From positions 15,690,998 through 15,754,997 of the forward strand of contig OZ037767.1 of assembly GCA_964035545.1 (NCBI GenBank): a DNA stretch of 64,000 bases. Direction: 5' to 3'. Shown in pieces: positions 1 to 41,169 of this stretch (position 1 is its first letter; each line of letters starts with the position of its first letter). Source of the stretch: Bugula neritina. Lineage: Eukaryota > Animalia > Bryozoa. A program made the position numbers and the translations under genes. The notes under the pieces are model-generated. The model was not told the origin of the DNA and did no database searches. It was given only the letters and a program-made list of their open reading frames with translations.

Positions 1-156
1 CAGATAGAGCTGGCATCTTTTCACGCTGTTATTGCCTTGAGATTGATCTGAGTTTGATCTCCATAGACCGACCAGCTCAGATCGACTGAGATCGATCTTT
101 GGCATCTTTACATGGATTGATCCATGGAAAGCTGGTGAATGACAGAAGTGAAATAT

Positions 157-566
157 TGTGATAGATTTTAGTGGTGCAATCATTATTGTTATTAATCGAA
201 ACGGTTCACTCTATACTGTTTATTATATTGTAAGTTCGACTACATCAGCATGTAGCTATGGACAGCAGTGGCACCACTAGTAACCACCAATCAGGACAGG
301 CACACTAATTGATAGCAGATGGAGCTAGCTATTCGTAGTTGCAGTGCTCTGAGTAGCTAGCTGGCAGAGCAGCTTGGGACTTCATTTAGAGTGGTTGTGT
401 ATTGAAGCTCACTAATTATGTAATCGTTTTCTATTCATGTTAGCAGTAAATAACCTTCTTGTATTCGTGTAAATAATAAAGTTATCTTAGCGTAAACAAC
501 CTGGTGTAGTGGCTTTGTTTAAGTTGACCCACACATAATAATAGTGAACTGGCAAAATTCACTACA
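157..566 (+). mobile_element. Solo LTR (410 bp) of a Gypsy-type element
   Basis: Starts TGTGATAGATTTT, ends AAAATTCACTACA (TG..CA, imperfect terminal IR). Flanked by ATAT on both sides (153-156, 567-570). Internal CCAATCAG and AATAAAGTTATC resemble the LTR of the element at 29115. Confidence 0.75.
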
Positions 567-936
567 ATATTCCTGAGTACACATTTAATCAAAGAGAGTG
601 TCAATAATAGTTACTGCATGTAGACTTTGCTCCTGGTAAGTTGATTAGAATAATTTACATTACCGTTCTTTTTACTTAAGTGATGGAAAATTTTTATCTA
701 GAGAGCAACCCTGATTGAAAACTGAATTTATCTAAAGTTTGTTACTTCAAGTACTATACAAATATTATTAGTAGGTTGGCATTTCTTATCTTACCTTATG
801 TGTGTTTAATATAAATATAAAACTTGAGATAAACATTCTCATGTGATATAATGTAGTCTGGAGTTATATCACATGACTGGACGATTTCTTCTAGAGTTAG
901 GGTGGGTTACCTGACAGCCCACACATATATAACCTA

Positions 937-3511
937 CACAGTTGGTTTAAGGTCATACTTTTCATTTTCTGGCTCTTTGCCAGGTGCTTTATGTTCTATA
1001 TGAACAATGTTCCACTGATAGCTCGAACAGGTTGAATGTCACAAGAACAAAAAAAATATGAAAAGATAAAAAAACTTATGTTCTCCAATATACTTTTTTA
1101 TTTTTTTCAAAAGCCAATTCATGTTTAAGTTATAGCTTGTTGAAAAACATAGTCCCCCTTCCACATTCTTTTCAATTTATACGCTCCTGACTTGTTATTG
1201 TGTCTCAATATGCCTTGTATTTGAGTGCTTGTTAGTCTCGCTTCACTAACTTTGCCTATACTTCACAAGTGCCAGTGCTGCTGGCTCAAAAGCTAAATGT
1301 TATAAACTGTCAGCTAAAACCCAATCTTGTATTCCTAGGTTGGTTGGCCTAAATAAAACAATAGTCAAATCATGATTTCATGTTTTAAAAATTTACTCTA
1401 TTCTAACCTGCTGCCTAGCTAGTTCTATTTTTGATGTATAATTACAAAATTTGTGATACATTTTTTTGGCAACCATGTAATTTATAAAATGCAGTAATGG
1501 TACTTATAATATTATATTATTATCACTATAATATATTATATAGTATTATGTGTGTTTTTATTATCCTGCATAGTATCTAATTTATTATTGTTGTTGTGCA
1601 AACAAGTGCAATTAACCTAGTTTTCAAAATGTACCTCTAAATTATCAGAATATCAGTTTAGATATTTTCATGCTTTGTAAGGTAAACCTAAAAAAAGAGG
1701 CTGTATTCCCAAAGTAAAGGGTGTTGAACTATGAACTATATTAGATTAGCCACTCTGCTACCAAGTGCATCAGTATAATATTATATGAATAGCTCTGATG
1801 CTTTGTCTCCGGTGGCTGGCTGCGATATGATAACTTGGCCAACTTCCAAGAGTTTAAAATTGGCGCAATTATTCAAGAGGTTACATACTGCACAGAGCTA
1901 GCAGTGATAGTAACCTTGCTATTGGCAGTACTTATTACAACTGCCAGCATATAAGCTGCATTGTAGAATGCCGTTGGGGCAGGCTAGTAAAACCAAATTC
2001 TGCTCTCTAATATACCTTAGACAAAATGCAGCAACATAATTTTTAGTTTCAAATTACATTTGCCACCCTTACATGAGCTGTGGGCTTCATAAAGATTCAT
2101 ATGATTAGAGATTTATGCTATAGGCCCTATCTGTGCTAGTGTATGATGAAAATAACACACCATTGTCAAAGTTAACTTCAAGTATGTTGTTTTCCAGAAA
2201 CTCAGTAATGTCCATTTATCTCTCGCATACAAATACTTATGTAATACCATACAGTTTAAGTTTTATTTTAGAGCACATCTGCAAACTCTACAATAAGAGC
2301 TTGCTTTACCAGTCTATTTCAGACCTGTTTTTGTAGCTAGTAATACGCAAGCTACTTATTTTTAAACTTTTGGGTTATTTGTTCAAAACCATTAGCTTTG
2401 CTAGTAACCCGATACTATTGCAACAGTTGACTGCTATCAACATGAATTGACAGCCTAATAATTATAACCCTTTTGCGCGCGAAATATTTATGTAATGATA
2501 GTTACTCATATAGTGCGCATGTTATTATCGATGACTGCGTGGTCTAGAGGTTAGAGGCGTCGGCGAGGAGTTAGTTGGTTATGGTTCAACCCTGTTTTGT
2601 TGCAATTTTTTTTGTCAACTTATGCAAATCCTACGCATGTATAATAAATATGGCTATAATTGTAAAGTTTTTTTTAACTTTTGTTCAACAGTAAGACAAC
2701 ATACATGCATAATAATTAAATACTGAACACTAGACTAAACCCTAAATTGATCTTATAGAATACAATGTACTTAAAATAATCATATGTGAATTAGAGAAAC
2801 TGAAAGTGCACCTGCTGCTCTATAGACAGACCTTTACTGACAAGACTGCAAAGTGAAGTGATTTAGCTGAAATTAACTCTGCCAAACAAACAAAGAATTA
2901 TGTTGTGCTGAGGCATTTTCAATATATTATTGTAACATAGTGAGATGATTCAGCTAAGTGCTAATGTAAAACAGGGAACATTATATTGGCAGAAATCCAA
3001 TAGACTGCCAATTTGTGCGAGAGGGTACTATATGTTATTGTGATAGCGCAGAGCGGCAAACGTACTAGGAATGTTATAATTAGTCACAGGAGCGTAGCTA
3101 GAACCACCATATGAAGAATTTAGAAAATTGCAGTGAAACTTGCAAAATGGTGTATGTTTTTACCAAATTGTGAAGAGCATAAACAGAATTTCAAAAAACA
3201 AAGAAAGTATATTAGAGAAAACATATCAAGGAATGTCAAGTTTAACTTTTATACTTTATAAAATGAATCCCCTGTGCTACAGCAGTGGAACATGGAGGGT
3301 GTAAAATTTTACTTATTATGCAACAACTTTCTCAAAAAATTTTTTATTGAAAAATTAAAAAAGTATATGAAAGAGGAATGCAAGAGCTATCTTTTCATGT
3401 AAAATTTGTTAATGTGAGACAAAAACTGTTCGAGCTATCCCCTGGAAACCGTTTATATATAACATAAAGCAGTGCCTGAATCTGGAAAGTAATGACCTTA
3501 AACCAACTGTG
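937..3511 (+). mobile_element. Non-autonomous DNA transposon, ~2.57 kb, CACAG termini (CMC/EnSpm-like), copy E1
   Basis: 20-bp TIRs CACAGTTGGTTTAAGGTCAT / ATGACCTTAAACCAACTGTG; near-identical to the full copy at 38604-41169; no transposase ORF. Confidence 0.9.
2533..2600 (+). mobile_element. tRNA-derived (SINE-head-like) segment inside the DNA transposon; also at ~40190-40255
   Basis: A-box-like TGGTCTAGAGG and B-box-like GGTTCAACCC at tRNA spacing. Confidence 0.55.
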
Positions 3512-5674
3512 AATCTAATATAGTTCATAGTTCAACACCCTTTACTTTGGGGATACAGCCTCTTTTTTTAGGTTTACCTAACAAAGCATGAAAATATCTA
3601 AATTGATATTCTGATAATTTAGAGGTACATTTTGAAAACTAGGTTAGTTGCACTTGTTTGCACAACAACAATAATAAAATATATATTATGCAGTATAATA
3701 AAAACACACTTAATACTACATAATATATTATATTGATAATAATATAATATTATAAATACTATTACTGCATTTTATATCTCGGATGGTTTCCAAAAAAATG
3801 TATCACAAATTCTGTAATTATACATAAAAAAAACTAGCTAGGCAGCAGGTTAGAATTGAGTAAATTTTTAAAACATGAAATCATGATTTGAATATTGTTT
3901 TATTTAGATTTTAGGCCAACCAACCTAGGAATACTAGATCGGGTTTTAGCTGACAGTTTATAACATTTAGCTTTTGAGCCAGCAGCACCAGCACTTGTGA
4001 AGTATAGGCAGAGTTAGTGAAGCGAGACTAACGAGCACTCAAATACAAGGCATAATGAGATATACAATAACAAGTCAGGATCGTATAAATTACAAAGAAT
4101 GTGGAAGGGGGACTATGTTTTTCAACAAGCTATAACTTAAACATGAATTGGCTTTTGAAAAAAATAAAAAAGTATATTGGAGAACATAAGTTTCTTTACC
4201 TTTTCATATTTTTTTTGTTCTTGTGACATTCAACCTGTTCGAGCTATCAGTGGAACATTGTTCATATAGAACATAAAGCACCTGGCAAAGAGCCAGAAAC
4301 TGAAAAGCATGACCTTAAAGTAACTGTGTTAGCCACTCTGCTACCAAGTGCATCAGTATAATATTATACGAATAGCTTTGATGCTTTGTCTCCGGTGGCT
4401 GGCTGCAATATGATAACTTGGCCAACTTCCAAGAGTTTAAAATTGGCGCAATTATTCAAGAGGTTACATACTGCACAGAGCTAGCAGTGATAGTAACCTT
4501 GCTATTGACAGTACTTATTACAACTGCCAGCATATAAGCTGCATTGTAGAATGCCATTGGGGTAGGCTAGTAAAACCAAATTCTGCTCTCTAATATACCT
4601 TAGACACAATGCAGCAACATAATTTTTAGTTTCAAATTACATTGCCACCCTTACATGAGCTGTTGGCTTCATAAAGATTCATATGATTAGAGATTTATGC
4701 TATAGGGCATAGGCCCTACCTGTGCTAGTGTATGATGAAAATAACACACCGTTGTCAAAGTTAACTTCAAGTATGTTTGTCAACTTATGCAAATCCTACG
4801 CATGTATAATAAATATGGCTATAATTGTAAGTTTTTTTTAACTTTTGTTCAACAGTCAGACAACATACACGCATAATAATTAGATACTGAACACTGGGCT
4901 ATACCTTAAATTGATCTTGTAGAATACAATATACTTAAAATAATCATATGTGAATTAGAGAAACTGAAAGTACACCTGCTGCACTATAGACAGACCTTTA
5001 CTGACAAGACTGCAAAGTGAAGTGATTTAGCTGAAATTAACTCTGCCAAACAAACAAGGAATTATGTTGTGCTGAGGCATTTTCAATAGGTTGTAACATA
5101 GTGAGATGCTTCAGCTAAGTGCTAATGTAAAACAGGGAACATTATATTGGCAGAAATCCAATAGATTGCCAATTTGTGCGAGAGGGTACTATATGTTATT
5201 GTGATAGCGCGCAGAGTGGCAAACGTACTAGGAATGTTATAATTAGTCACAGGAGCGTAGCTAGAACCACCATATGAAGAATTTAGAAAATTGCAGTGAA
5301 ACTTGTAAAATGGTGTATGTTTTTACCAAATTGTGAAGAGCATAAACAGAATTTCAAAAAACAAAGAAAGTATATTAGAGAAAACATATCAAGGAACGTC
5401 AAGTTTAACTTTTAGACTTTATAAATTGAATCCCCTGTGCTACAGCAGTGGAACATGGAGGGTGTAAAATTTTACTTATCATGCAACAACTTTCTCAGAA
5501 ATTTTTTTATTGGAAAATCAAAAAAGTCTATGAAAGAGGAATGCAAGAGCTATCTTTTCATGTAAAATTTATTAGTGTGAGACAAAAACTGTTCGAGCTA
5601 TCCCCTGGAAACCGTTTATATATAACGTAAAGCAGTGCCTGAATCTGGAAAGTAATGACCTTAAACTAACTGTG
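3512..5674. mobile_element. Rearranged second copy (E2) of the same transposon: inverted left arm 3512-4328 plus right arm 4329-5674 with an internal deletion
   Basis: 3512-4328 is the reverse complement of 937-1747, ending in TIR ...CCTTAAAGTAACTGTG. 4329-5674 matches 1746-3511 minus ~2190-2612, ending ...CCTTAAACTAACTGTG. TT is duplicated at the internal breakpoint. Confidence 0.9.
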
Positions 5675-8420
5675 AAAGTTCAGAGCTTCTCAGCTCTATG
5701 TAGTGCTTTAATCAGCTATATACCACCTGAAAAAATAAAGCTGTTTGTATTTTGTAATTTAAGAATACAATATTCCACTATAAAATGAATAAAGTTTGTT
5801 ACTAACTTACTGTTGTAGCATTTACGAAGTGAACTTACTGAAAAAGCTTATAACAATGCCCACATACAACAAAATTTTTCATTTATAGATTTTTCCTCAT
5901 TATTCCCATGTTGAAAACTTTGTTCTTACAGTTCAAAGTGTCTGCAACTTAAGAGATATACTTATAATATTTACTTTGCAATTATTAAGTAACATGAAGT
6001 GTGTTATAGCAGCAAGATCGTCGGATATAGAAAACTGGTAAAGTGTATAACAAATAAATACGGAATACGAGGATAATTCATGCTATTTGTGTCATAAAAA
6101 GTATGAAAAATCTATATTCATGTTAATAGTGACAGTAAATATTTGAATGCCTGATAATGTTCAACTTTGTCAAATATTTCATGCTAATAGATGATAAAAA
6201 GTTGGTATCATAATTTCATTGTGATTCTCCAGCTGTTATGATAAACATGTTGTGTAACTGAGAGTGGGCGAATAATTTCAATGCATCTTGTCATAATAGA
6301 TATACCAAGTAATGAGAAACAACTAGAAACTTGATATCTTTATGTATTATTTGTTTCAACAATAATCTAAAATAATGTAAATATTTAATATTTATATTAT
6401 TTTATATGTCAATGTTATAACACGATTATAATAGTAATTATATATTGATAATCATAATAATATGTTTTGCTTATAAACACCACCTATAGCAAAAATATAG
6501 AAACTCCATTTTAAAGCAGCATATCCATACAATGTAGCACAATTTATCCCGATTCATTCTAAATTATAAACAGATCTTATTCAACAGAAACTAGTATACG
6601 AGTTGTTGAAATGTTACATAAAGTAACATATTGTTAAAAACATCAAAATATATCATTCATTATTATACATGTCGACTAAAATTAATTCATGAAAATATCT
6701 ATAAAAAATTATTTTGCTACAAAAACTTGTTTAAAATACTACCTGAAGTGAAATTAAAACTAATTATACAATTTATAATATTGTGCGACTTAAAGCTTGC
6801 AGTATATATTGGATGTAGGATGTTTGCGATTTGTAATCAATTAGATTTCTCCGTTTACTTTGCGATTCATTAACAATACGATCTATTTTTCCAAACAAGC
6901 TGCATCCTTATGTTTGAAAATAGATTCATAAAATAAACATATAGTCTAGGCCTTTTAGAATAAGGCTGGAGTAGTTTTGTATTTTGCATAGGCAAACCAA
7001 GTTGTGTATCTTACATATGTGCAAACTAATTAAAGTATTTTGCATTCTAAAATAAATCTTTACCCTAGAAATAAAGGTTATTACAAACTCAAAGCCAATC
7101 TACTGCATGGTTAAAGGTTGAATTGGCTAGACATAGTAATAATGAAATATTGCCAGCTAAGGCTTAGTAAGATATGCTTTGCTTCAAGTAGCTTCGTAAG
7201 ATTTGAAATATGAAAAACATGTTCGTTAACTTAAAAATTTTTAAAAGGTCAATTTCAATAGGCTATAGTTTATTATATCTGTTTTTTATATCTAAACTAA
7301 AAAGTTATGTTTTAAATCACAATGTGAATATTTTATATTTTTATATTTTGCTTTAATTTTATCTATTCAAAACTTTTTATTCTAAATATTATTTTTTTAA
7401 ATAGTTTTGTCTGTTATTTCAAACTTTTTTTTACAAAACATTGACTAATTTAGTTGTATAATTTAAGCGCTTCTGCAACTCTGGCTGTGTTGGCATCTGG
7501 TGGACACTCTCAACCAGCTGATTGTTTGTTACAAGGACTCTAGGAACAGAGCGTTACCCATAGCATTTTCAACTCATTTGATGACCGTAGAGCTTTGTAT
7601 TGGCTACTGCACTATACAAGGTAAATCTTTTTGTAACTGTTTTCAGAAATAACTACAGTATACCAAAATATTGTGTAAGAACCTATTATACCTGATAATG
7701 ATGTTGATTCTTTGAAAGCGTTTATTTTTAATTTTCATCGATTTCAGTATTCTTCCATTTTAACACGACAAAGGCATATATAAGCTTGAATCTGCCAATT
7801 GTAGCTGAACTATAAAGAATTTGTGTTTTGTGATTTAGCGTGTTGTTATATTTATGAAGATCGATTAGTAATTTACTAATTTCAGGGCAGCCATATGCAG
7901 GAGTACAATCTACTGACCAGTGTTACTGTGGTGTTGAATACAACAAACATGGTGAAGTAGGGGAAACTGAGTGTCGTAGAGCATGCAGAGGGACCAGTAG
8001 TCAAATGTGTGGTGGAACATGGAGGAACAGTATCTACAAGACTTTCCCAGGTATAATGTGATTGGTTTATAAACAGTTGTCCTTCAAATCAATTGTGATT
8101 GTTTCCATGTATAATAAACTATGATATACAGATTATTCAGCTATATATAATATATAAATCAATTATTTCTCTAAATGTATTAAAACCTGCGAAGCTAAAT
8201 CTCTAGTTCACAGAAACACCATCACTGTCAGCTTTGAGTGCAGCAACAATTGCATACCTGTTGTTGTGGATGGACAACAGCTGTTTGTAAACAACAGAAA
8301 ACTGAAGAAATTTAGAGCGAGTAGCGGCCATGTTGGATTAGTAGATGTTGTGGTGGCTGATCTGGACACTGACCTTGACCTCATATCCGCCACATCAACT
8401 GAGAATAATTTCATTGTCGA
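5675..8420 (+). repeat. Segmental duplication, paralogous to 38226-38603 + 41170-42920 + ~45200-45440
   Basis: Collinear high similarity from AAAGTTCAGAGCTT through intergenic DNA, WSC exons and part of the large exon. Confidence 0.9.
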
Positions 8421-8682
8421 CAGCATAACTTCTCAAACTTTTTACCACATGAGTCATCCAAAGCATAAAAGATTCTCAGCGTTATCTGATCGCATGTGTA
8501 GCAGTAAATCTGTTAAGGTTTTCAAACAGCTCTCAATAGAATCATGTGCCTACGCTTGCAGTGTGCAATATGAAGATTGTGCAGCATTTTCAATAACCTC
8601 TAAAGCTGAATGTTATATTCATAATGAGGTTTTAGTTGTGTTCAAAAATTATTCAAGTTCTACTTGCTATGTGCCCGTTTAG
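7467..8682 (+). pseudogene. WSC / PAN-apple secreted-protein paralogue A (internally deleted)
   Basis: Exon 7467-7620 (LLQLWLCWHLV..CYKDSRNRALP..MTVELCIGYCTIQG) and exon 7886-8050 (QPYAGVQSTDQCYCG..CRRACRGTSSQMCGGTWRNSIY) form a WSC domain with phase-1 GT-AG joins. The 5' part and acceptor of the last exon are deleted at ~8180. The C-terminus (SIESCAYAC..CAAFS..CYIHNE) is PAN/apple-like. No ATG at the expected start. Confidence 0.8.
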
Positions 8683-9500
8683 AATTTATCTATAGATTTG
8701 AACCTAATTTTTACAGTAATATATTGAAATGTTCTTTTTAATATCTTCAAACAAAAGTTTCATTTTGTTCTTTTGTAATATCTTTTTATATACATTTGAG
8801 CTAACTGCGCATAACTCTAAATATTCAGCTATATAATATATAAATCTGATTTTGTATTCCAGTTATATTGGTAATCAACACTTGTCATACAACATTCAAA
8901 TTCAATAAATAGTATTATGTAATGCATCTGGCATGGAATATAAATATTATTCTGAATTTTGAGCTTTTTGTAAACTATCTGAATATTTTCTACTGATCTT
9001 TTTTATTAAAAAATAGAAATAGATTTGTTTGAGTAACAATGACGCATCTTTGGTTTAACAATGCACGTATATATCATACTATATATAGTCCCTTATGATC
9101 TTATTCAAGTAGGGTGCAGATTTAATTGTTGGCGAATAACTCATGTGAGAGATTCTTTTATTTATGTTTAATATAATGTAACAGCTAATACTATTCTACA
9201 AAATACAAAACTACACCCCTAAGACTAGCAAATAAACAGCTCTATAATATCTTCAGACATCCTTCACTAAATTAATAAAATCTACACACTTTACTATAGA
9301 GAGCCTTTAATCATTTTTTGTTTGTTTTTGATGTTTACTAAGCAAGGATTTAAAACAAAAAATAAAGGAAGTTTTACTTAAAACCGCTGGCTTAAAAAAA
9401 TTAAGTTTGGAAAAATATAGCAGCAAACAAAACAGCAAAATAAACAGAACAAGAGTAAACAACAATGAGACACTAAACATAACTTCCATATAAGATATAT

Positions 9501-9807
9501 TGTGGTGGCTCGTGGAGCTACCAGCAGCACGGTACGCAGGGTCACATAATTGACTCGGAACAATGACAGCCAATTAGCGGCTTTAATAGTTAGTAGCAGT
9601 AGTAGTTTTCCCGCTGTTAGTCAGTCGAAGTTAGAGTGCTGAATAATCTAGATGTGTGAAATTATTAGATGTGTTTTTATAGTTTTTGTAATGTGTTATT
9701 GTGTTTAAAATATATACTCGTTCACTCGACTTATCCTGGTGAAGTTCTCTAGCAAGTAATTAGACTCTCTGAATTGCATATCAACCCTAATTCTGAAAAT
9801 CATAACA
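9501..9807 (+). repeat. 5' LTR of element 1
   Basis: TGTGG...TAACA; direct repeat of 18172-18478. Confidence 0.97.
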
Positions 9808-11888: not shown

Positions 11889-12645
11889 CACAGGATAGTT
11901 AAGGGCATCTTCACGAAGAATATTATAAATTTCTCTCAAAATGTAGTTTAAGTTCTTGAATAATATGGCTTTGTGGGTGTCATGCGTGTTGCCTACTTGC
12001 AATTGTTTAGCCTAAGATCAAACTACAACCAATAAGCAGCAACCTTCATTAGGACTGCGTAATCTATCAACATTCCATTATGGGTGCTACATGAACAAAG
12101 TACAAAGCAAGCTATTCATTATAGCCTGCCAGCTAGTAAGCCTGTAATTAGTATGTACGCGCCAATATCTTCTCACCCCTACGTGCTCATTGAAGCGTGG
12201 AGTACTGCGCGCAGCTAATTTTCTATGAAAAAATATAGCATTTTCAGTGTATAAATCACTAATTTATGGGCAATCTAGAAGAGTTATCGGCAAAAGAAAA
12301 AAAACTTGCACTGGAGAAATATCTCAGGATTTCAGCAGTGCAATTTTTATTCAGATATCATGTTTTCCTGCTGAGATATTTTTTTGGTACTGAAAAGTCA
12401 GCTTTTCAGGCAAAATTGGCCAAAATTGGGCAGTTTTCTGTTTATAACTTTGCAACAAAAATGAAAATTGAAATTTCCAAAAAACTTACACTGGGGAAAA
12501 AGAAGATCTAAAACATAGTTTTTAAATTTTGACTCTAGCACAATTAGGTGAGATTTTATTTTACTGGTACTGAATTCTTATATGATTACAATGCAAACCT
12601 CAGCAAGGCAGTTGCAGCTAAAAGGTTGCCCTTAACTATCCTGTG
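11889..12645 (+). mobile_element. 757-bp MITE (CACAG termini, 2-bp TSD) nested in pol
   Basis: 19-bp TIR CACAGGATAGTTAAGGGCA; TSD AA; removal restores the pol frame (..ERQ|AMAK..). Confidence 0.95.
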
Positions 12646-15550: not shown

Positions 15551-16306
15551 CACAGGATAGTTAAGGGCAACCTTTTAGCTGCAACTGCCTTGCTGAGGTT
15601 TGCATTGTAATCATATAAGAATTCAGTACCAGTAAAATAAAATCTCACCTAATTGTGCTAGAGTCAAAATTTAAAAACTATGTTGTAGATCTTCTTTTTC
15701 CCCAGTGTAAGTTTTTTGGAAATTTCAATTTTCATTTTTGTTGCAAAGTTATAGACAGAAAACTGCCCAATTTTGGCCAATTTTGCCTGAAAAGCTGACT
15801 TTTCAGTACCAGTAAAATATCTCAGCAGCAAAACATGATATCTGAATAAAAATTGCACTGCTGGAATCCTGAGATATTTCTCCAGTGCAACTATTTTTCT
15901 TTTTCCAATAACTCTTCTAGGTTGCCCATAAATTGGTGATTTATACACTGAAAATGCTATATTTTTTCATAGAAAATTAGCAGCGCGCAGTGCTTCACGC
16001 TTCAATGAGCACGTAGGAATGAGAAGATATTGGCGCGTACATGCTAATTACAGGCTTACTAGCTGGCAGGCTATAATGAATAGCTTGCTTTGTACTTTGT
16101 TTATGTAGAGCCTATAATGGAATGTTGATAGATTTTGCAGCCCTAATAAAGGTTGCTGCTTATTGGTTGTAGTTTGATCTTAGGCTAAACATTTGCAAGT
16201 AGGCAACACGCATGCCACCCACAAAGCCATATTATTCAAGAACCTAAACTACATTTTGAGAGAAATTTATGATATTCTTAGTGAGGATGCCCTTAACTAT
16301 CCTGTG
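15551..16306 (-). mobile_element. Second copy of the same MITE (756 bp), opposite orientation
   Basis: Reverse complement of 11889-12645; TSD GA; removal restores ..REY|EVVIPR.. Confidence 0.95.
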
Positions 16307-18171: not shown

Positions 18172-18478
18172 TGTGGTGGCTCGTGGAGCTACCAGCAGCA
18201 CGGTACGCAGGGTCACATAATTGACCCGGAACAATGACAGCCAATTAGCGGCTTTAATAGTTAGTAGCAGTAGTAGTTTTCCCGCTGTTAGTCAGTCGAA
18301 GTTAGAGTGCTGAATAATCTAGATGTGTGAAATTATTAGATGTGTTTTTATAGTTTTTGTAATGTGTTATTGTGTTTAAAACATATACTCGTTCACTCGA
18401 CTTATCCTGGTGAAGTTCTCTAGCAAGTAATTAGACTCTCTGGATTGCATATCAACCCTAATTCTGAAAATCATAACA
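18172..18478 (+). repeat. 3' LTR of element 1
   Basis: Preceded by the PPT, followed by the ATAT TSD (18479-82). Confidence 0.97.
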
Positions 18479-19736: not shown

Positions 19737-21036
19737 CTACAACAGATACAACCATGTTCTGCTACTAAATTATTTACACTATGTAATATATCAATGTATC
19801 CTTAGAGTGTTGACTGCAGTATATAGATAGTAGAGATAGCATATATATCAATGTAGTTATAGGAAAACAACAAAATTGTATATATAGTACACAATTGTGT
19901 ATTATTATAGTAGAGTTATGTAAAGGTGATAATAATAAAATAGAGGAATTGTAAATGAGTTCACAGAAATACCTTTTTCCTTTATATATTATTTTTATGC
20001 GTATGGAAGTTTTCATTTTTTATTGGAAGCAAGTATTTTATAATTATATAATGAGTTACAATTGTGATGATTGTTAGAGAAATGTCATTTAGCTCATAGT
20101 AAATTTTTTGCAAGATATTTTGAATGGAGCCAACATATTATAAGCCACCGCAAAACTATGTTTTAAAAAATCTACTCTTACATATACTTGTTTGTTTGCA
20201 TTTGCAAAACTAAATTACTGATTAACATTCCATCATATATTATATAATAGTCTGAAACATAAATATCACAATGTTACAAATAACATAGGGCTGTAAATAT
20301 TCTAACTCTTCCATTAATTATTGCTTTTTATTTAGCGCCAAGACAATAGCTGACTTCAATCGGACTTTTATAACGCTTAATCCTAATTTCATGTAGGATA
20401 ACATTTATGGTACGAAAGTTCATATAGAAGTTGAAAGTTTATATTACTCCAAATATTATATTATGAACAGCTTATGTAAGCATGTTATAATTTTGTATAG
20501 CATGATTGTCTACAACCACTGCTTGGTAGTTGGTACAACATCAGATGCGTCATGCCGTATTATTTAAAGAATGCAACAGGCTGAGTAATATGAGTTGTGT
20601 TGTCCTATCAATAATTATAATGATTTCTAATAGTATTCCCCATACACTTCGACTTGGTAACGCAATTGTTTGTTGACAGGTCGATTTAAAATGAGTAATG
20701 GGAGTGAATGGAATTTCCCATCTATTTCCTCGTGCATTCCCTGTACTACGGAACTGCATATTGTACAGGCTAGTTATAGTTAGAGTTGATAGATAAGCGC
20801 TACACAAGCAGGCACGCCATATTGAGAGGATTCTACTTAGTAATTTACAGAAAGTTAACGACTACTGTTATACACGTCTGAAAGTTCAGAGCTCAAAATG
20901 AAAAAATAATTTATAAAATAGTATTATATACAGTCTGAGGATAGACATTGTGTATTGCGGAGTTTTCTAGTCTAGCATATTAGTCTATTTCAAGAGCTGC
21001 TAAAGATGGAGAGTTCTTACTAAAAGGTCAGTTGAA

Positions 21037-24000
21037 ATGAATCAGAATGAAGTGCTAAAGTTCAGTCAAATACTCACTAGTATTAGAGATAGAGATGATG
21101 AGGGGAATATTCTGACTGAGCTGAAGAAGTGCCTTTCTTTCATATCATTAGAAGAGAGATATAGACTATTGTGTGAGGAATATAGAACAATACACTGGGC
21201 AGCTGAGAAAGGGTATACTGACACCATCAAATGTCTACTAGATGATGTATCAGTAGAACAGAAGGTAGAGCTACTCATGATACAGAACGGTGGAGATGAG
21301 ACAGCTATACACTGTTCAGCAAAGAGAGGACATACTGACATCATCAAATATCTACTAGATGGTGTATCAGCAGAACAGAAGGTAGAGCTACTCATGATAC
21401 AGAACAGTGAGGATGAGACAGCTATACACAGTGCAGCATGCAAAAGACATACTGACATCATCAAATGTCTACTAGATGGTGTATCAGTAGAACAGAAGGT
21501 AGAGCTACTCATGATACCTAATGGTAATGGGTGGACAGTTATAGAAATTGTAATAGGCAATGGGCATACTGACACCACCAAATGTCTACTAGATGGTATA
21601 TCAGTAGAACAGAAAGTAGAGTTACTCAAGGCAACTGAGTGTTATGCTATACACTCTGCAGCATACAGAGGACATACTGACATCATCAAATGTCTACTAG
21701 ATGGTGTATCAGTAGAACAGAAAGTAGAGCTACTCAAGATACAAGACGTGGGGGATGATAAGACAGCTATACACATTGCAGCATGCGGAGGACATACTGA
21801 CATCATCAAATGTCTACTAGATGGTGTATCAGTAGAACAGAAAGTAGAGCTACTCAAGATACAGAATGATGATAAGACAGCTATACACATTGCAGCATGC
21901 GGAGGACATACTGACATCATCAAATGTCTACTAGATGGTGTATCAGTAGAACAGAAGGTAGAGCTACTCATGATACCTAATGGTGATGGGTGTACAGTCA
22001 TAGAAATTGTAACAGATAATGGGCATACTGACACCATCAAATGTCTACTAGATGGTATATCAGTAGAACAGAAGGTAGAGTTACTCAAGGCAACTGAGTC
22101 TTATGCTATACACTTTGCAGCATACAGAGGACATACTGACATCATCAAATGTCTACTAGATGGTGTATCAGTAGAACAGAAGGTAGACCTACTCAAGATA
22201 CAAAACTGGGATGATAAGACAGCTATACACATTGCAGCATGCGGAGGACATACTGACATCATCAAATGTCTACTAGATGGTGTATCAGTAGAACAGAAGG
22301 TGGAGCTACTCATGATACTTAATGGTGATGGGTGGACAGTTATAGAAATTGTAATAGGCAATGGGCATACTGACACCACCAAATGTCTACTAGATGGTAT
22401 ATCAGTAGAACAGAAAGTAGAGTTACTCAAGGCAACTGAGTGTTGTGCTATACACTCTGCAGCATACGGAGGACATACTGACTTCATCAAATATCTACTA
22501 GATGGTGTATCAGTAGAACAGAAGGTTGACCTACTCAAGATACAAGACTTGTGGGATGATAAGACAGCTATACACAATGCAGCATGCGAAGGACATACTG
22601 ACATCATCAAATGTCTACTAGATGGTATATCAGTAGAACAGAAGGTAGAGCTACTCAAGATACAAAGCTCGGATGATAAGACAGCTATACACATTGCAGC
22701 AAAGAGAGGTCATACTGACACCATCAAATATCTACTAGATGGTGTATCAGTAGAACAGAAGGTAGAGCTGCTCAAGATACAGAATAGAGATGGTAATACA
22801 GTGATACAGGAAGCAGCTAAGACTAACCAAACACAGATTCTCACTCTTTTGATGAGTCAGCTGACAACAGAGCAGCAGCTAAAACTTTTTAATTTATCAA
22901 ACCATGAAGAACGAACATCTTTAGATGTTGGTGTAAATAATGAAATATTTGGACTCCAGAGAATTGCCTCTATAACGGAACAAAGAGATGATGCAACAAA
23001 CCAAGTTCCAGGTAAAATGACCAATTTCTAAACAGACTATTTTAATTAAGGTCAACTAATCTTAAAACAACATAACTGTGATATGTTAGCAGTACGAAGG
23101 AATATCATGCAATAATGAAAAGTAAATTCTAAAGTTTCAAAAGTCATGTTTATATTCTCCATCTATGATTCAGAGAACCTACTGTTTAGCCTCGGGTGAC
23201 AATTAGCGAATGAATGCCCTGGAAACCTTTAAAATACTACATAAATGTTTTCAATGACCAAAAAGCATAATTAAATAAAGACAGAAATTTGTTCATTATG
23301 CTTTGTCACAGGTAACAATAGATTGATCATTTTTTGAACTAAACACACAGGTCAATAAAAGAGTGCAATTTAATTATTTTTAAAACAAATACAGATGCGT
23401 TTTTGAAATTTAGCATTGCCAACTTTGGAATTTTGTAAATGATGAAAAATGCAAAAAAAGTGAAATTAGTATTTCATAATAAATAGGGGTGACTGGGGGG
23501 GGGGGGAGGGGACACAACGGGCTTCTTTTTAAGTTTTTTGCTCATTAGTCTGTCTTTTAAGTTACTAGTTCAATAATCTCTAGTCCAAATGCTACACCAG
23601 TTGTCTATTATAGGTATCAGTTGGTTGTTTTTATCTCTTTCACAACTTTTAGAATAATGAAATTTTCATGAGGAGAGAAATGGCCCATGGTGCCCCAATT
23701 CTAGTCATTATTGCAATACCTTTTTATTAAAAAAAATCACGATTCTAAGTCAATATTATGTTCTCTCACAATTTGACTGGTTTTTTTGTGCCCCTATATG
23801 ACCTTTGTGCACCCATTACCCCATACTAAAAAGTTGCTAATTTGACAAATTTTAAAAAATAAATTATATTATAATTATTCACCCCACAAACTGAAACATT
23901 TAATTGTATGTAACATTTTGCTGTAATTAATCCTTGTACTCATATTATTTAAGTGCCTATAACAATCATCTATAAATTTAAAAGCCCAACATAGCCCGTT

Positions 24001-27000
24001 CACATATTTTATATTATACACGTTTAACATTTTTTTAAACGCAGATTTCTGGAAAGAGCAGACACATCACCATCCTTTGCACAGTGGTGAGTTTCCACAT
24101 TCATCACCAGGTTTGCCACATCAACCAACATCTACACAGCACTGGCTGCAACCAACACACCTAAGACAACCATCTTATCTACAAACGGCGCCACAGTTGA
24201 TCCATCTTCAGCCACCTTGGTTTCAACTCCCTTCACAACACATGCATGCTGAGCCACTGAACAATACTGATGGTTCTTTTTCTATGCCGTACCTACCCAC
24301 ACCATCAAAACCACAGTGGTGTCCTAAATCAGAGAATTTCACAACCAGCTTACCATCTCAGCCTCTTCAATTGAATGCCCCATCTTTCAACCATTCAAAG
24401 GACTGGTCTCTATTCAACCCTCCATCTTTTAACATGCCATCTACAAACCCTTCTCATTTGAATGGTGACAGCAACATCCACAGAGAAGCAGACACTCAGT
24501 TCAAACAGCCACCACATTCAATCTCCAACTTTTCTAACAATGCTCCACCAGAAGTACAAATGCAGAAAAAAAGTTTTAGAAGCAGGGAAATAGAAAATGA
24601 ACACAAATCCGATTTGAAATTGAAAAGTAACACAAATTCTCCTGTTATTGACGTTGCACAAGAAAGCAATTCGTTTATTCAAGTTTTTGACTTGAAAAAG
24701 CAAACAAACAAAGTTTCACACAACAAAAGACCTGCAGAAACAGCTATGACAGTTTTACCCCCAAATAAATATCAAAGGACTGCATGTAAGTTATATAAGT
24801 TGGTAGTCTGCTAGTCTTTGCTGATTCTTGCAGCTTACTATAAAAATTTATTTGTCCTAAATGTTGAAAATTATAAAATAGTTAGTGAGTTGTTAAACAA
24901 ATGATAATTGACTGCCATATTTTAAGGTTTTTTACTAAATAAATTATTTTTATGAATCAATGTCCTCAACATTTATTATAGCTAAAATATTATTTGTATT
25001 ATCTTTACAGTTGAAGCACCAACTCAGTCGACTACTCTCTCACATGATTTAACGTCAGATACGGGATCATCACAACTGAGTCACTTAAACACTGTGGCAC
25101 CACACCAAGCTTTTTCAGGTCTTGAAGCGCCGCATGAACATGTGTCAGCAGAAAACACAATGGAGAACATGGCGCAGTCAACTGAGGTTCCTTCTTTGAT
25201 AGATGCCGCGGTTGCAGCACCACATCAAGATATACCTGCTTATACTGTAGCGGTACACCAAGCAGTTTCACTTCCTACTAGATCAGATGGGCCATTCAAG
25301 AGTAAGTTAATTGCGTATTTGCCTCGAAGCCTACATATTTGTTACATTGATGATGTGTAATTACACTAAGATTAAAGTTGGCTTTGTGATCATGTGACGG
25401 GTTTTTCATGCAGGTAAAGTGAAAAACTGTAAAGTAACTGTAAAAGTTCAGGGAGAGAACACAGTCTACTCATTTGAAGATCACATGACTATTGGAGATC
25501 TCAGGCGTTGCATAAAGGAAGACTGTGAAACTGGTGTATTGTGTCGTGTAGTTGATGAAGGTAATGTGCATATGTGTGATGGTATAGTAAAAAGATGAAA
25601 ATAAATAGCTTCATATTAAAAGAAATATAGTTAGATTTTAGACTTTTGAATTAAAAATATTTTATTATAATCTTCTAATAAACTAGCCTAGAAACTTAAT
25701 TAAAAATTGAAATACTGTAAAATAGTTTTGCTCCCACTGAGATTCAACCCGAGAACTCCAGCTTGCAAGCAGGCGTGCAACCACTATACACCACAGAGGG
25801 CCCTGAGTAAACTAGAGCGCTACTTCCCACTTTGTTCTCAAAAACTCCACTGGCCCTTCTTCTACACCTTCAGTCTTCAATTGCTCCTTTGGCTTTTTAA
25901 CTCCCTCGGAGTGCTACTATACTACAAAAAAGGCCGAAATCGCTTATAAAACTTTTGCCCTCAGTGGGATTCAAACCTGAGACATCCAATTTACAAGCAG
26001 ACTGTTACCATTACATCACAGGGGACTACTGGGTAAACCCAACACTGCAAATACTGCATAGTATCCGTGCTCAATATTTTAATATATATGGCTAAATCTC
26101 AATATCACCATATTATTCTGCTGTTGCATTACTCATTATTGTTTCATAACGTGTAAAAGTAAATAAATGAAGATCTTCAGTAGGTAATCCTTTGTTTGAA
26201 AGCTTTATATCATTTTAGATAAATCAAGATGCTCTGACTCTCTCAGACTTGGATTAGTAGATGTGCCATTCTCAATATTTGTTGAGAACCAAGAAACACT
26301 GGTTACAGGTTTGTTGATATAAATTATAAATTACAGTAATCATGAATAAAAATGTAACATTCTATTCACATTTTATTTTAACATGTGTTTATAAAGTTTC
26401 CTATATACCTCAAGGCTACCCATTACGATAGCATGCATGACTTTTGTGTATTTTGTAGAACGAGTCAGTGACAAGCAGGCTGGCCAAGATTTGTCAGCTC
26501 CTAATGCTGCAACAAGTTTTCAATATGGTATGACAACTCTTACTATATATAATGAGATAAGACAACCCTTACTATATATATATAATGAGCAAAGACAACT
26601 CTTACTATATATAATAAGATAGGACAACTCTTACTATATATAATAAGATAAGACAACTCTTACTATATATAATGAGATAAGACAACCCTTACTATATATA
26701 ATGAGATAAGACAAATCTTACTATATATAATAAGATAAGATAACTCTTACTATATATAATGAGATAAGACAACTCTTACTATATATAATGAGATGAGACA
26801 ACTCTTACTATATATAATGAAATAAGACAACTCTTACTATATATAATGAGATAAGACAACTCTTACTATATATAAGATGAAGAGGCAATTGTAGAGTTTG
26901 ATATATATGAACAGCTGTTATATTACACTCAGTAATATCTCCTATAGCTGAGATATAATACTAATACTTATATCTTCTCATAGCTTAATATGTAAATATT

Positions 27001-27899: not shown

Positions 27900-29494
27900 A
27901 TAATTCTTCAACATGTCTTTACCTCACCTACGTTGACATTCTAACTGGTTGTATATGCTGCATGTACTATTAGCTTTAAGACGTTATGATCAAGTAAACT
28001 ATAACTGGTAATAGATTCTATTCATGCAGCCATGTACTATCATGATATAGCAAGGAAATATTATACTTTGTAATAGTTTTGTGCTGTATTTTGATAAACT
28101 TTTTTAGACTTTATTATTGTTTAGTTTTTACCTGATTTGGTTGATTATATATTATATTACTTTATATTATATATTATTAGTTTTTATTGTTTTATAAAAG
28201 TTGATACAGCATATCATTATTATATACAGTGTTTGTTTTTGCCATACAATTATCAAAGAAAGCATTTTGAATTACATAACGAATAGAAATATTATTATGT
28301 GTAACAATTAGGCTGTTATATGTTATAGAGCTTGATTGATTTATGAATATATTACATGCATTAGTTTTATTCTAAAATAGTTTTTACAGCCCACAATAAC
28401 AATATTTCTTACTATATAGCCTATATATCAATTATTATATTATACTATAATTCTGTTACTGCTTCACTACATTACTTCATCATATTTTTAAATTTTGCCT
28501 TATACATATTATTTGTTATCTTGCATGCATGGGTTTCAGTGATAAATTTACTACTTAGCATCTAAATATATATTATATAGAATGCGTTAAAGCTATACAA
28601 ATATCAAATAAAGCTGAGTGTAAAAAAGTTCACTATTTTGGTGCCTTAACGTTTTTCACTTAGTAATAATACAGTCAGAGATACCAATCACAGTTTATGC
28701 TGTCACATGTTACTAGAAGGACTTATGATTATCCTTTATAACATATTGGATGCTTCTTTGATGTTTTAAACTGACGAAATAATATAAAAAGTTAGTCAAG
28801 AAAATTGAATGTTATCTTAGCGAATATTTGATTGGCTGATTTAGTAAAACACAGGCATGGCTGTTGTTTATATTAAAAACGTAGTCATTGACTTTTTATT
28901 GGCTGATCAGACAAATAATATGTATTTGCAGTCAATAAGTGAAATTATCACTGGGATATTATGAACATCTAGAGTTTTCTACTTCTGCCCATTTCATATA
29001 ATATAGGTTTCTGTTGTGTTCTTTCAATTACCTTAATTGATTATGGTGTCCTTTTTTGATTAAAATGGTATATCTACTTATATTTTGAGATAAAATACAT
29101 TGTAGAATCGATATTGTAATGGGATTACGTAGCATAATAATGGGGTCGTCCCCTCCTGTGTGGAATACTTATAACTATGTTCTACTATCCAATCAGAGGG
29201 ACCGGAAGGCAAGGTTCCGGTCAAGTGACTGTGCGCGGGTTAGCTAGCAGAAACCATGTGTTGTTGAGAGCAGGGGCTCGTGGTAGTAACATGTGTTTAT
29301 AATTGATTGATGTATTGTGGTATTTTGATGTAATGTTATAATTATTATTATCGAGTTAAATAAAGGTTATCGTACGCAAGCTCTACTAGTGATTGCTAGT
29401 TAAATTGAAACTAAATACGCAGGCAATCCACGCTTGATAATTGTGCTAAAACTCACAACAGTGTTGGCAGCGGTGGGATTTCGCGTATATCAAG

Positions 29495-30300
29495 ATGACA
29501 GATAGAGGCACAGAGCTACCCATTTGGAGGAATGAAGGTGAGGAAGATAACGTTGCTATACCTATAGAACCAGAAGTGAGGGTGCATAGGGAATGTTATG
29601 AGGAGAAGTACCGGCTGAGGGTGCCCACCTTCTCAGGTGAGGAGCCGGTGGAGCAATTCGTTCAAGAATTCCAAGATGTAATGGAGGTTGCACAGTGGCC
29701 ACCCAGAATAGCATTGCTCAAGCTCAGGATGGCACTGTCAGACAAGGCCAAGCCATACGGAGTGGGACCAGACATTGACGGAATCTTTGCTTCCCTGCGG
29801 GCCCGTTTTGGTATCTCCGCTGTAGATGCCCGGGCCCGTCTCCCGTCTCCGCAAGCAAACCGTGAGAGGTACACTTATGATGCCTTCGTGCAATCCATCA
29901 ACGACTTGGGACTCCATCACCAACTCCTGGCGAGGGGAGTCACCACGGTCGAAGGTGCGCTTGCAGAAGGGGAGGCTTACCTTCTGGCCAGTCAGCTGCT
30001 CCTACCGCTTCTACCGCGGATAACCCAGCGGTGGCCATGGTGACGCAGATGACGGTGGCATCGAAGGTCGCACAAATGACCGACATGCTAGCCGAACTGG
30101 TTTGCGCCTTGGCCCCTCTCAGCCAGCTAGACACCACCCGTGAGCTTGACGGGCCACCGGTGCAGTCGCCTAGTAGAGGACACCCCTCCTGCTAGGAGTG
30201 CGGAAAACCAGGACACTTCCAGAAACACTGTCCCCAACTTCAACCAGGGTTAAACTACGACAGCCCGCGGATGCTCCCACATCCGGCAAGCCGCCGATAA
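29495..30300 (+). pseudogene. gag: Degenerate gag of element 2
   Basis: QFVQEFQDVMEVAQWPPRIALLKLRMAL aligns to element-1 Gag; internal deletion, frameshift near 29990, TAG in the zinc knuckle. Confidence 0.88.
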
Positions 30301-32546: not shown

Positions 32547-32652
32547 TAAGTCCTAGCCACGTTTCACAACCACGCTGCTCGCTCTTTCATCACATTGATA
32601 CAGCTTTGAGTAGACGTACGTAGAAATCATAAACATACCACTCTCATTCACA

Positions 32653-33679
32653 ATGGCTTGCCAAGAATCGAGAGGTAAGTTAATTATGTTTTTGGTACGA
32701 AGGCTAAACTGTATTAATCAGCTTAACTGTAACAGAATAAGCTGGAGACTTGGTAATAATTTTTAGTGGTGGGAATTCACATTGACTCTAAGACTGAGCA
32801 GTCTGTTACAGCAGTGGGTGTTTTCGATCAACTATTCATTAACTGAGCCTCACGAGTGTCTAATTGAGTTAAGTACCCACCAGGCTGTATAGGCCGGTTG
32901 TACTCAGTGTACCCTCTTACACTGTTATACTCTTGCAGATCACACTCGATTGACCAACTCTGGGTCACAAGACCAACACCCCCTCTCCTCCTTGGATAAC
33001 GGACCGGAAATGGACAACGGATTGCCCGCGATACTGCGTCGAAGACACAGATGGGTGCCGCGACGGACGGAGCGGCAAATTTAAGAAGCCTGGGGACCGA
33101 GTAGGTCACAACGCACTTGCCATGTATGTTACGAAGAGCTTCCCTCACACCAAGGACTACGGCTGCATGTGATTGCACACTTCCTACTACGCTTCTGTCC
33201 GTGTGGATTCCACGACGTATACCCATACCCCGTCGTGGCACATATGATGGACTGTTTCACAGGCGAAGGCTATGTAGTGGACGTGGACAATTACGACCAG
33301 TATCTAGAAGCCATTAGACCAGTGATTAAGAAGGCTTTGACCTGAGCCGCATTATCCTTCGGGTTTTATACACTGCTAACAGCCGCCCGCCAGAAATCCC
33401 CTATGGTAAAAACGGTCGCTGCGATCATACCTCGGCCAGACAACACCCCCATGGAAGCATCAGACTCTTTAGAAGAAGTGACGCCAACTCCAACCAGGCC
33501 TAACCGACTAGCAACTGTTGAGGAAAGACTCCTACGACTGCAGGATGAATTCACCCAATTCACCCGGCTTATTCAGCACTTCAATGAGCCTTAGTGAACT
33601 AAAGGGCTCAGTGGGACGCCTTAAGCGTAGATTACATGCACGGCAAGAACGCCACCGGATCCAGTCCCTGCAAAACTAG
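32653..33679 (+). pseudogene. Spliced zinc-finger accessory ORF of element 2: join(32653..32674,32939..33679), two stops and a late frameshift
   Basis: ATG GCT..AGA G|GTAAGT ... TCTTGCAG|AT CAC ACT CGA; CHVC-x12-HVIAH, CPC-x12-H-x3-C, RLATVEERLLRLQ, LKGSVGRLK. Confidence 0.8.
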
Positions 33680-34588
33680 GAGCTGGAAGTTGACAATTCC
33701 ACCCCGCATATCCCCGGGGTACTACATTGTGATCGTGTAAATGCTTGATCTGCAAACGACCAATCTGTGTAACGATCCAGATCTCTCTCTCTCTGTAGCT
33801 GGCCAGCTGTGTGCTGGCCGTCTCCTTTATCTTATTTATATATATGTCGTACGTTTGATATTTCTTTTCTTTTTCTTTGTGGATTTTCCTTACTTATGTC
33901 ATTTTTGCATTATTATACTCTTTTATTTTATCAGAAAGTGGGGCTTTCTGCTGGTGGGGGCGGTGTAATGGGATTACGTAGCATAACAATGGGGTTGTCC
34001 CCATCTGTGTGGAATACTTATAACTATGTTTTACTATCCAATCAGAGGGACCGGAAGGCAAGGTTCCGGTCAAGTGACTGTGCGCGGGTTAGCTAGCAGA
34101 AACCATGTGTTGTTGAGAGCAGGGGCTCGTAGTAGTAACATGTGTTCATAATTGATTGATGTATTGTGGTATTTTGATGTGATGTTATAATTATGTTTAT
34201 CGAGTTAAATAAAGATATCGTACGCAAGCTCTACTAGTAATTGCTAGTTAAATTGAAACTAAATACGCAGGCAATCCACGCTTGATAATTGCGCTAAAAC
34301 TCACAACAATATTAATGTTTATTAAATTCACAACAGCTTATATAGCATAAATGTCAGCGTAACTAAAATATTGTATGAAACATAGATATTATACTGTAAA
34401 CATAAATATAATTGTAAATTTTACCTGCATCAGAAAGAAATTACGTTCTTTGTCAGAAAACTCAATCAATAAGTTATTATTCTTTGTCAGAAAACTCATT
34501 CAATAAATTATTATTTGTGTGATAACTTACTAAATTAAAATTGGGGTATAGTATCGTTGGTAAAAGAACCAACAGGTTGTTTAAACAT

Positions 34589-38603: not shown

Positions 38604-41169
38604 CACAGTTGGTTTAAGGTCATACTTTTCATTTTCTGGCTCTTTGCCAGGTGCTTTATGTTCTATATGAACAATGTTCCACTGATAGCTCGAACAGGTT
38701 GAATGTCACAAGAACAAAAAAAATATGAAAAGATAAAGAAACTTATGTTCTCCAATATACTTTTTTATTTTTTTCAAAAGCCAATTCATGTTTAAGTTAT
38801 AGCTTGTTGAAAAACATAGTCCCCCTTCCACATTCTTTTCAATTTATACGCTCCTGACTTGTTATTGTGTCTCAATATGCCTTGTATTTGAGTGCTTGTT
38901 AGTCTCGCTTCACTAACTTTGCCTATACTTCACAAGTGCCAGTGCTGCTCGCTCAAAAGCTAAATGCTATAAACTGATCAGCTAAAACCCAATCTTGTAT
39001 TCCTAGGTTGGTTGGCCTAAACAAAACGATAGTCAAATCATGATTTCATGTTTTAAAAATTTACTCTATTCTAACCTGCTGCCTAGCTAGTTCTATTTTT
39101 GATGTATAATTACAAAATTTGTGATACATTTTTTTGGCAACCATGTGATTTATAAAATGCAGTAATGGTACTTATAATATTATATTATTATCATTATAAT
39201 ATATTATATAGTATTATGTGTGTTTTTATTATACTGCATAATATCTATTTTATTATTGTTGTTGTGCAAACAAGTGCAATTAACCTAGTTTTCAAAATGT
39301 ACCTCTAAATTATCAGAATGTCAGTTTAGATATTTTCATGCTTTGTAAGGTAAACCTAAAAAAAGAGGCTGTATTCCCAAAGTAAAGGGTGTTGAACTAT
39401 GAACTATATTAGATTAGCCACTCTGCTACCAAGTGCATCAGTATAATATTATATGAATAGCTCTGATGCTTTGTCTCCGGTGACTGGCTGCGATATGATA
39501 ACTTGGCCAACTTCCAAGAGTTTAAAATTGGCGCAATTATTCAAGAGGTTACATACTGCACAAAGCTAGCAGTGATAGTAACCTTGCTATTGGCAGTACT
39601 TATTACAACTGCCAGCATATAAGCTGCATTGTAGAATGCCGTTGGGGTAGGCTAGTAAAACCAAATTCTGCTCTCTAATATACCTTAGACACAATGCAGC
39701 AACATAATTGTTCATTTCAAATTACATTGACACCCTTACATGAGCTGTGGGCTTCATAAAGATTCATATGATTAGAGATTTATGCTATAGGCTAGCTATT
39801 ATGAAAATAACACACCATTGTCAAAGTTAACTTCAAGTATGTTGTTTTCCAGAAACTCAGTAATGTCCATTTATCTCTCGCATACAAATACTTATGTAAT
39901 AGCATACAGTTTAAGTTTTATTTTAGAGCACATCTGCAAACTCTACAATAAGAGCTTGCTTTACCAGTCTATTTCAGACCTGTTTTTGTAGCTAGTAATA
40001 CGCAAGCTACTTATTTTTAAACTTTTGGGTTATTTGTTCAAAACCATTAGCTTTGCTAGTAACCCGAGACTATTGCAACAGTTGACTGCTATCAACATGA
40101 ATTGACAGCTTAATAATTATAACCCATTTGCGCGCCGAAATATTTATGTAATGATAGTCACTCATATAGTGCGCATCTTATTAACGATGATTGCGTGGTC
40201 CAGAGGTTAGTGGCGTCAGCGACGAGTTGGTTGGTCATGGTTCAACCCTGTTTTGTTGCATTTTTTTTTTGTCAACTTATGCAAATCCTACGCATGTATA
40301 ATAAATATGGCTATAATTGTAAAGTTTTTTTTTAACTTTTGTTCAACAGTAAGACAACATACATGCATAATAATTAGATACTGAACACTGGACTAAACCT
40401 TAAATTGATCTTATAGAATACAATGTACTTAAAATAATCATGTGAATTAGAGAAACTGAAAGTACACCTGCTGTGCTATAGACAGACCTTTACTGACAAG
40501 ACTGCAAAGTGAAGTGATTTAGCTGAAATTAACTCTGCCAAACAAACAAAGAATTATGTTGTGCTGAGGCATTTTCAATATATTATTGTAACATAGTGAG
40601 ATGATTCAGCTAAGTGCTAATGTAAAACAGGGAACATTATATTGGCAGAAATCCAATAGATTGCCAATTTGTGCGAGAGTGTACTATATGTTATTGTGAT
40701 AGCGCGCAGAGCGGCAAACGTACAAGGAATGCTATAATTAGTCACAGGAGCGTAGCTAGAACCACCATATGAAGAATTTAGAAAATTGCAGTGAAACTTG
40801 CAAAATGGTGTATGTTTTTACCAAATTGTGAAGAGCATAAACAGAATTTCAAAAAACAAAGAAAGTATATTAGAGAAAACATATCAAGGAATGTCAAGTT
40901 TAACTTTTAGACTTTATAAAATGAATCCCCTGTGCTACAGCAGTGGAACATGGAGGGTGTAAAATTTTACTTATTATGCAACAACTTTCTCAGAAAATTT
41001 TTTGTTGAAAAATTAAAAAAGTATATGAAAGAGGAATGCAAGAGCTATCTTTTCATGTAAAATTTGTTAATGTGAGACAAAAACTGTTCGAGCTATCCCC
41101 TGGAAACCGTTTATATATAACATAAAGCAGTGCCTGAATCTGGAAAGTAATGACCTTAAACCAACTGTG
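38604..41169 (+). mobile_element. Complete non-autonomous CACAG DNA transposon, copy E3 (2566 bp)
   Basis: Perfect 20-bp TIRs, TA TSD; empty site in the paralogous segment near 6045. Confidence 0.95.

Follow-up and report, generated by a model that had tools for sequence, protein, structure and literature searches.

How did two copies of one DNA transposon family come to lie side by side in the genome of the bryozoan Bugula neritina, the second with its left part turned around? The question is raised by positions 937 to 5674 of a 64-kb stretch of contig OZ037767.1 (64,000 nucleotides in full length, hereafter the window). A sequence-only reading had described the locus as an element A-B followed by an inverted A' and a B', and had taken it for the fossil of an alternative transposition, in which a transposase pairs ends of two different copies. 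We analyzed the window by self-BLAST and alignment and compared it with contigs from sequencing runs. The results suggest that a single transposition of this kind very probably made the composite.

Layout and junctions of the composite

Self-BLAST and alignments returned the order A-B, inverted A', B' across 937..5674, and comparison with a third copy in the window bore out the proposed structure. The left element, E1 (937..3511, plus strand), was identified by self-BLAST, motif search and alignment as an intact 2575-bp non-coding terminal inverted repeat (TIR) element with CACAG...CTGTG ends and imperfect terminal repeats of ~130 bp; it contains no open reading frame of at least 100 aa. Its closest counterpart, matched at 97.3% (935-3514 to 38602-41172), is E3 (38604..41169, plus strand), an intact 2566-bp reference copy recovered by self-BLAST and alignment, which is flanked by a TA/TA duplication and inserted in a paralogous block. 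The remainder of the composite comes from a second element, E2. In self-BLAST, 4329-3512 matches 936-1747 in inverted orientation at 93.7%, and 4329-4777 plus 4768-5676 are matched by 1746-2188 plus 2603-3513. Together with the alignments, these matches define A' (3512..4328, minus strand) as the left 817 bp of E2, inverted and ending in E2's left tip at 4328, and B' (4329..5674, plus strand) as its right part, 1346 bp ending in E2's right tip. Alignment also revealed that ~0.42 kb is missing from the interior of B' (E1 2188-2611, approximately), a feature absent from the sequence-only reading.

The ends of all three elements are marked by a 20-nt terminal motif, which occurs six times in the 64 kb, at 937, 3511, 4328, 5674, 38604 and 41169; none of 100 shuffles reached six occurrences. 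Both inner junctions of the composite are exact to the tip and end at the termini of two different elements. Junction 3511/3512 reads CTGTG/AATCTAATA, where CTGTG is E1's right tip, and junction 4328/4329 reads CTGTG/TTAGCCAC, where CTGTG is E2's left tip. The corresponding internal site is intact in E1 and E3 and reads TATATTAGA-TT-AGCCAC. Its single TT in E1 (1746..1747, plus strand), seen in the alignment and in run contigs, is equivalent to the target that would have been hit in E2. TT sits at both inner junctions in inverted arrangement: one copy (3512..3513, minus strand, AA on the plus strand) is joined to E1's right tip and the other (4329..4330, plus strand) to E2's left tip, both located by alignment. 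Since the intact site in E1 and E3 has one TT and the composite has one at each junction, the TT has been duplicated in inverted arrangement. The alignment therefore agrees with the earlier placing of 3511 and 4328 at either side of a single TT site. Neither E1's right tip nor E2's left tip retains its original inner flank. At the outer ends the flanks are unmatched, TA on the left of E1 and AA on the right of E2, again as had been claimed, and a variant shared by both ends of E2 was recovered as well: position 8 is A in both E2 tips (CACAGTTAC, CACAGTTAG) and G in E1 and E3.

The length of the duplication was compared with that of the family. All three intact CACAG-ended elements in the window are flanked by 2-bp direct duplications (TA/TA, AA/AA and GA/GA). 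A search of sequencing runs returned 21 runs (best share 0.36) and listed no RNA run among them; contigs from four of the 21 were aligned to 3460-8400 and also to the first junction (3467-3556). Contigs from all four runs carry an uninterrupted A-B join with the two shared letters; they run on past 3512 into B, and the right terminus stops at 3511 with varied flanks. The uninterrupted join indicates that TT is single in ordinary copies, so that the duplication in the composite has the length usual for the family. For two independent uniform junctions, an exact 2-bp overlap has a probability of ~1/2570. The TA at 935..936 (plus strand), placed by alignment, is likely what survives of the 2-bp target duplication that originally flanked E1; TA also opens the consensus of the sequence that follows the family's right ends in three of the four runs (agreement ~0.5).

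Substitutions separate the two elements of the composite along their whole length. Between E1 and E3 the divergence is 1.36% in A and 2.34% in B; E2 stands at 4.95% from either of them in A and at 3.1-3.6% in B. The 34 E2-only substitutions in A' begin at tip position 8, the last lies 40 bp short of the breakpoint, and no gap between them exceeds 106 bp; A' also carries three indels of its own relative to A, from which it diverges by 5%. A rough binomial calculation that ignores clustered changes favours the combination of A with B and of A' with B' ~4,900-fold over the swapped one (p=0.0016 and 0.0009 for the latter). At the listed rows where E2 varies, the runs carry the E1/E3 letter in 10 of 11 cases (5/6 in A', 5/5 in B'). 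Because of this, E2 is likely the older copy, with changes that would be mostly private and present in both halves.

The E family is likely a non-autonomous DNA transposon of CMC/EnSpm type, judged by its termini and target-site duplication (TSD). Members of the CMCT clade have 5'-CA(C)...(G)TG-3' termini and TSDs of 2-5 bp, and CMC/CMCT (EnSpm-like) elements encode a DDE transposase with C(2)C and H(3-4)H motifs (PMC12730594). The E elements have the CACAG...CTGTG ends and the 2-bp TSD of this group. The longest stop-free frame of E3 is 70 aa, and the three longest of 37 frames gave no Pfam match.

The route to the composite

A single alternative transposition, using the right end of E1 together with the left end of E2 and inserting into E2, is highly probable as the origin of this sequence. 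The composite combines tip-exact junctions of two elements, a split TSD of family length, copies that are not chimeric and outer TSDs that do not match, the features of such an event, and the core of the sequence-only reading is upheld by the junctions, the inverted 2-bp duplication and the non-chimeric arm. In the proposed course of events, a transposase from an autonomous partner, supplied in trans, would have paired the right end of E1 and the left end of E2 as a hybrid pair, the two elements lying in direct orientation on one chromatid. Cutting at these two outward-facing ends would have freed the intervening DNA, the spacer, which was then presumably lost. The joined ends would have inserted locally at the TT 817 bp inside E2, in the orientation that gives an 817-bp inversion and not a deletion. 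Comparable products have been described for reversed Ac/Ds ends in rice, where the inter-transposon segment is lost, inversions carry both TSD copies and some inversions span a few kb inside the construct (PMC3470690). A function of the product itself is unlikely.

We consider it reasonably probable that both ends lay on one chromatid, the strict form of reversed-ends transposition. Chromatid geometry cannot be read from the product, and hybrid element insertion, in which E1's right end and E2's left end come from sister chromatids, homologues or another chromosome, yields the same one; we regard this as possible but unlikely. The junction would then mark a deletion, a duplication or a translocation instead of the loss of a spacer circle. 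The earlier claim that DNA between neighbours was dropped accordingly stands in part: the inner flanks are gone, and same-chromatid neighbour geometry is not proven by their absence. The original distance between E1 and E2 is not fixed, as nothing homologous to the left flank occurs in the window, a point that leaves room for hybrid element insertion. A short duplication, however, would leave a second copy of the left flank, and the 58 kb downstream hold none. Maize elements must lie near each other in the right orientation for efficient reversed-ends transposition (PMC3744419), which makes neighbour geometry the known efficient route, an argument that stops short of excluding hybrid element insertion.

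Nesting could, by sequence logic, also account for both the piece order and the TT arrangement: E1 inserts in reverse into E2, making the TT duplication, the stretch bounded by the two left ends then inverts by recombination between the inverted A arms or through transposase, and an adjacent deletion replaces the left flank. Homologous recombination between inverted Ds copies accounts for 11% of rice rearrangements (PMC3239180) and explains natural Galileo inversions (PMC2775673). We nevertheless find this route improbable. It needs three events, and it predicts AA and a paralogue-like left flank where TA and unrelated sequence are found. It also predicts chimeric arms, unless the crossover was confined to the first 7 bp, or to the last 40 bp with reciprocal-mosaic parents. 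E2-type sequence runs through the whole inverted arm, from the tip to the breakpoint, and this speaks against ectopic recombination in general, as do the lost flanks and the newly made TSD. An assembly artefact, from a fold-back read or a mis-join between members of a high-copy family, deserves mention as the family is abundant and the junctions are known from the assembly alone, and is very unlikely. A' differs from A by 5% with three indels of its own and is not a fold-back of the same molecule; mis-joins between repeats follow homology and are not expected to give two tip-exact, non-homologous junctions with an overlap of TSD length. Transposition of a single element, with ends taken from its replicated copies on sister chromatids, gives the same piece order by sequence logic (see also PMC2775673, Fig. 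S1 legend). It predicts matching outer TSDs and identity of A with A' and of B with B', whereas TA faces AA, the halves differ by 4.95% and 3.1%, and E1 lies within ~2% of E3; we give it hardly any credence. The private changes of E2 in both of its halves tell against this event and against a fold-back alike.

Several observations weigh against the proposed reversed-ends event or temper it. A 2-bp duplication alone carries little information. Copies on homologues at separate sites give an inversion plus a deletion or an inversion plus a duplication (PMC2775673, Fig. S1 legend). The junction coordinates come from the assembly alone, no spanning reads being found, and neither the pre-event haplotype nor the spacer was seen. 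A' is richer in E2-only changes than B' (34/808 vs 31/1325, Fisher p=0.019, post hoc), an excess that our analysis cannot explain; chance and conversion of B' by the neighbouring B are both possibilities. In the B half, moreover, the divergence of E2 (3.1-3.6%) is only slightly above that between E1 and E3 (2.3%). No transposase of the family was found, and the superfamily assignment rests on termini and TSD length.

Flanks, sequencing runs and the rest of the window

The right flank (5675..8410, plus strand) starts with AA and is a degraded paralogue of 38226-45435 by self-BLAST, at 88-96% identity and without the stretch 42919-45201. It matches the paralogue from its first base, 5675 corresponding to 38226. 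For the left flank (1-936), no homologous sequence turned up in the rest of the window (non-self matches had E-values of at least 0.17). The sequence-only reading had noted that paralogue sequence at ~38160-38225 is missing here. The match does start only at 38226, but its loss in this event is unproven: at 88-96% identity, the duplicated block seems to predate the split of E1 and E3 (~2%), and E2's right end may simply be where it starts, so that the missing sequence is weak evidence for loss of a spacer. Duplication of the block as a product of the transposition event was considered and rejected, as its divergence of 4-12% exceeds the ~2% between E1 and E3.

E3 itself lies in the paralogous block, ~375 bp from the join to E2's right end (6046 vs 38603/41170). 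The first block is ~11 bp shorter than E3's empty site at the matching position. This difference could be an excision footprint, in which case E2 and E3 would stem from one older insertion and E2 would have hopped locally; alternatively it is an indel in AT-rich sequence. The block beside the composite further holds a 392-bp insertion at ~7540-7930. A gene without a Pfam hit is present in three related copies (7931-8682, 34589-35757 and 42684-45435), to which Atlas weakly assigns NHL-repeat-like features (score 0.92, recognition below threshold). Compared with its paralogue, the copy next to the composite is missing 2.3 kb.

The E family is abundant in the sequencing runs, with 1092-4533 contigs per run aligned to 3460-8400. 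No bridging piece for junction 3511/3512 was present among the contig pieces listed for the four runs, where a gap proves nothing either way. Run X1 carries the letters of the other paralogue at 23 of 27 alignable listed sites (two of 29 rows had no aligned position), and it is the one run of the four in which E3's right junction appears as a joint; the other three barely cover the right flank. The four runs may simply lack the haplotype of the composite, and they neither confirm nor refute it. Near 3530 and 4329, some family copies in all four runs join A to B ~16 bp short; these joins end at the same TT site, and the internal site varies in other copies too. In run X3, the right end of an element of a 757-bp CACAGG family appears in one contig near 3472 as an insertion close to the right end of an E-family copy. 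A junction 25-mer gave no matches in metagenome scans; the terminal motif gave three loci that match over 20-36 bases only and were taken as chance. Rfam returned no matches on 1-9000.

The 757-bp family, with CACAGG...CCTGTG ends, is represented in the window by two copies in inverted orientation (11889-12645, AA/AA, and 15551-16306, GA/GA) that are 95.6% identical. Both are inserted in one Gypsy-like long terminal repeat (LTR) element, whose LTRs at 9501-9807 and 18172-18478 are 99% identical. Another Gypsy-like element, more degraded and with 67-75% similarity to that one, occupies 29115-34308 and has 346-bp direct repeats at 29115 and 33964 (96%). The window, with a GC content of 35.8%, also contains a 675-aa stop-free frame of 117-bp tandem ankyrin repeats (21004-23031), a tandem array of 29-bp units (26519-26924) and a dispersed repeat at 36814-37018 and 58973-59355 (77% identical), one copy of which (58973-59349) carries inverted arms of 50 bp and resembles a small miniature inverted-repeat transposable element. 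On the minus strand at 60888-61765 lies an intron-split gene with a flavoprotein domain (PF02441), resembling phosphopantothenoylcysteine decarboxylase.

Known systems, possible silencing and significance

In Tn10 inversion-deletion, the inner IS10 ends attack nearby DNA, the middle is deleted and the adjacent segment is inverted. The composite resembles this outcome, Tn10 being a bacterial composite transposon of the IS4 family with a 9-bp TSD. Its nearest counterparts are the reversed-ends products of Ac/Ds in maize and rice, in which the ends of two elements enter one target, TSD copies lie at the inversion breakpoints, the inter-transposon segment is lost and targets are local (PMC3744419, PMC3470690). 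The composite differs from them in its 2-bp TSD (8 bp in Ac/Ds), in belonging to a CACAG-ended non-autonomous family where Ac/Ds is hAT, in having its target inside a participating copy and in being a natural fossil, not an isolated event. It also works like hybrid element insertion of the Drosophila P element, which belongs to a different superfamily and takes its ends from different chromatids or homologues (PMC2775673, PMC3744419). Natural cases on record include three hAT duplications in maize B73 (PMC3744419), and alternative transposition has been proposed for VANDAL21 in Arabidopsis (PMC12312487).

Among animals, Galileo and BuT5 likewise bound natural inversions with DNA-transposon copies (PMC2775673, PMC3698922). 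Their copies are chimeric, with exchanged TSDs and no deletion, whereas the composite has non-chimeric arms, a new TSD and lost flanks. Chimerism is the criterion used for the Galileo inversions, and ectopic recombination is the cause assigned to those natural animal inversions at transposons that have been tested (PMC2775673). A literature search over titles and the starts of abstracts, with most subscription journals outside its reach, found no natural alternative transposition in an animal by a CMC/EnSpm-type family. The composite is likely an unusually clean, real-looking new natural instance of a known mechanism.

A and A' together form an inverted repeat with arms of ~0.81 kb (~95% identical) and a 1.76-kb loop; the arms share 276 perfect 21-mers, and the longest perfect run is 100 nt. 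By analogy, silencing could proceed from a hairpin formed by this 0.8-kb inverted repeat. Mu killer is likewise an inverted duplication of transposon sequence. The composite shares this structural feature with the Ac killer type. Maize inverted duplications arising from alternative transposition yield small interfering RNA and silence Ac (10.1101/2020.01.07.897926), and in the Ac killer composite insertions, too, alternative transposition leaves an inverted transposon duplication (10.1101/2020.01.07.897926, PMC13635294). The composite differs in having arms ~95% identical around a 1.76-kb loop. A hairpin locus of the Ac killer type would further give a read-through transcript, small interfering RNA and silencing in trans. 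That a reversed-ends event of CMC/EnSpm type built a transcribed inverted repeat here, an Ac-killer-like source of small RNA silencing its own family, is a speculative and quite improbable extension of this analogy. If true, it would place transposon self-silencing through alternative transposition outside plants.

The event is small, with 817 bp inverted, lies beside a degraded gene paralogue and is probably without effect on the host; such an effect is unlikely because the neighbouring gene copy already lacks 2.3 kb relative to its paralogue. Its interest lies in the transposon family. Alternative transposition is mostly known from induced events, with Ac/Ds in maize and rice and the P element in Drosophila. 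The signature found here, two tips joined to one split TSD, is usable for a genome-wide count, and a clean natural product of CMC/EnSpm type would widen the list of transposases that pair the ends of different copies.

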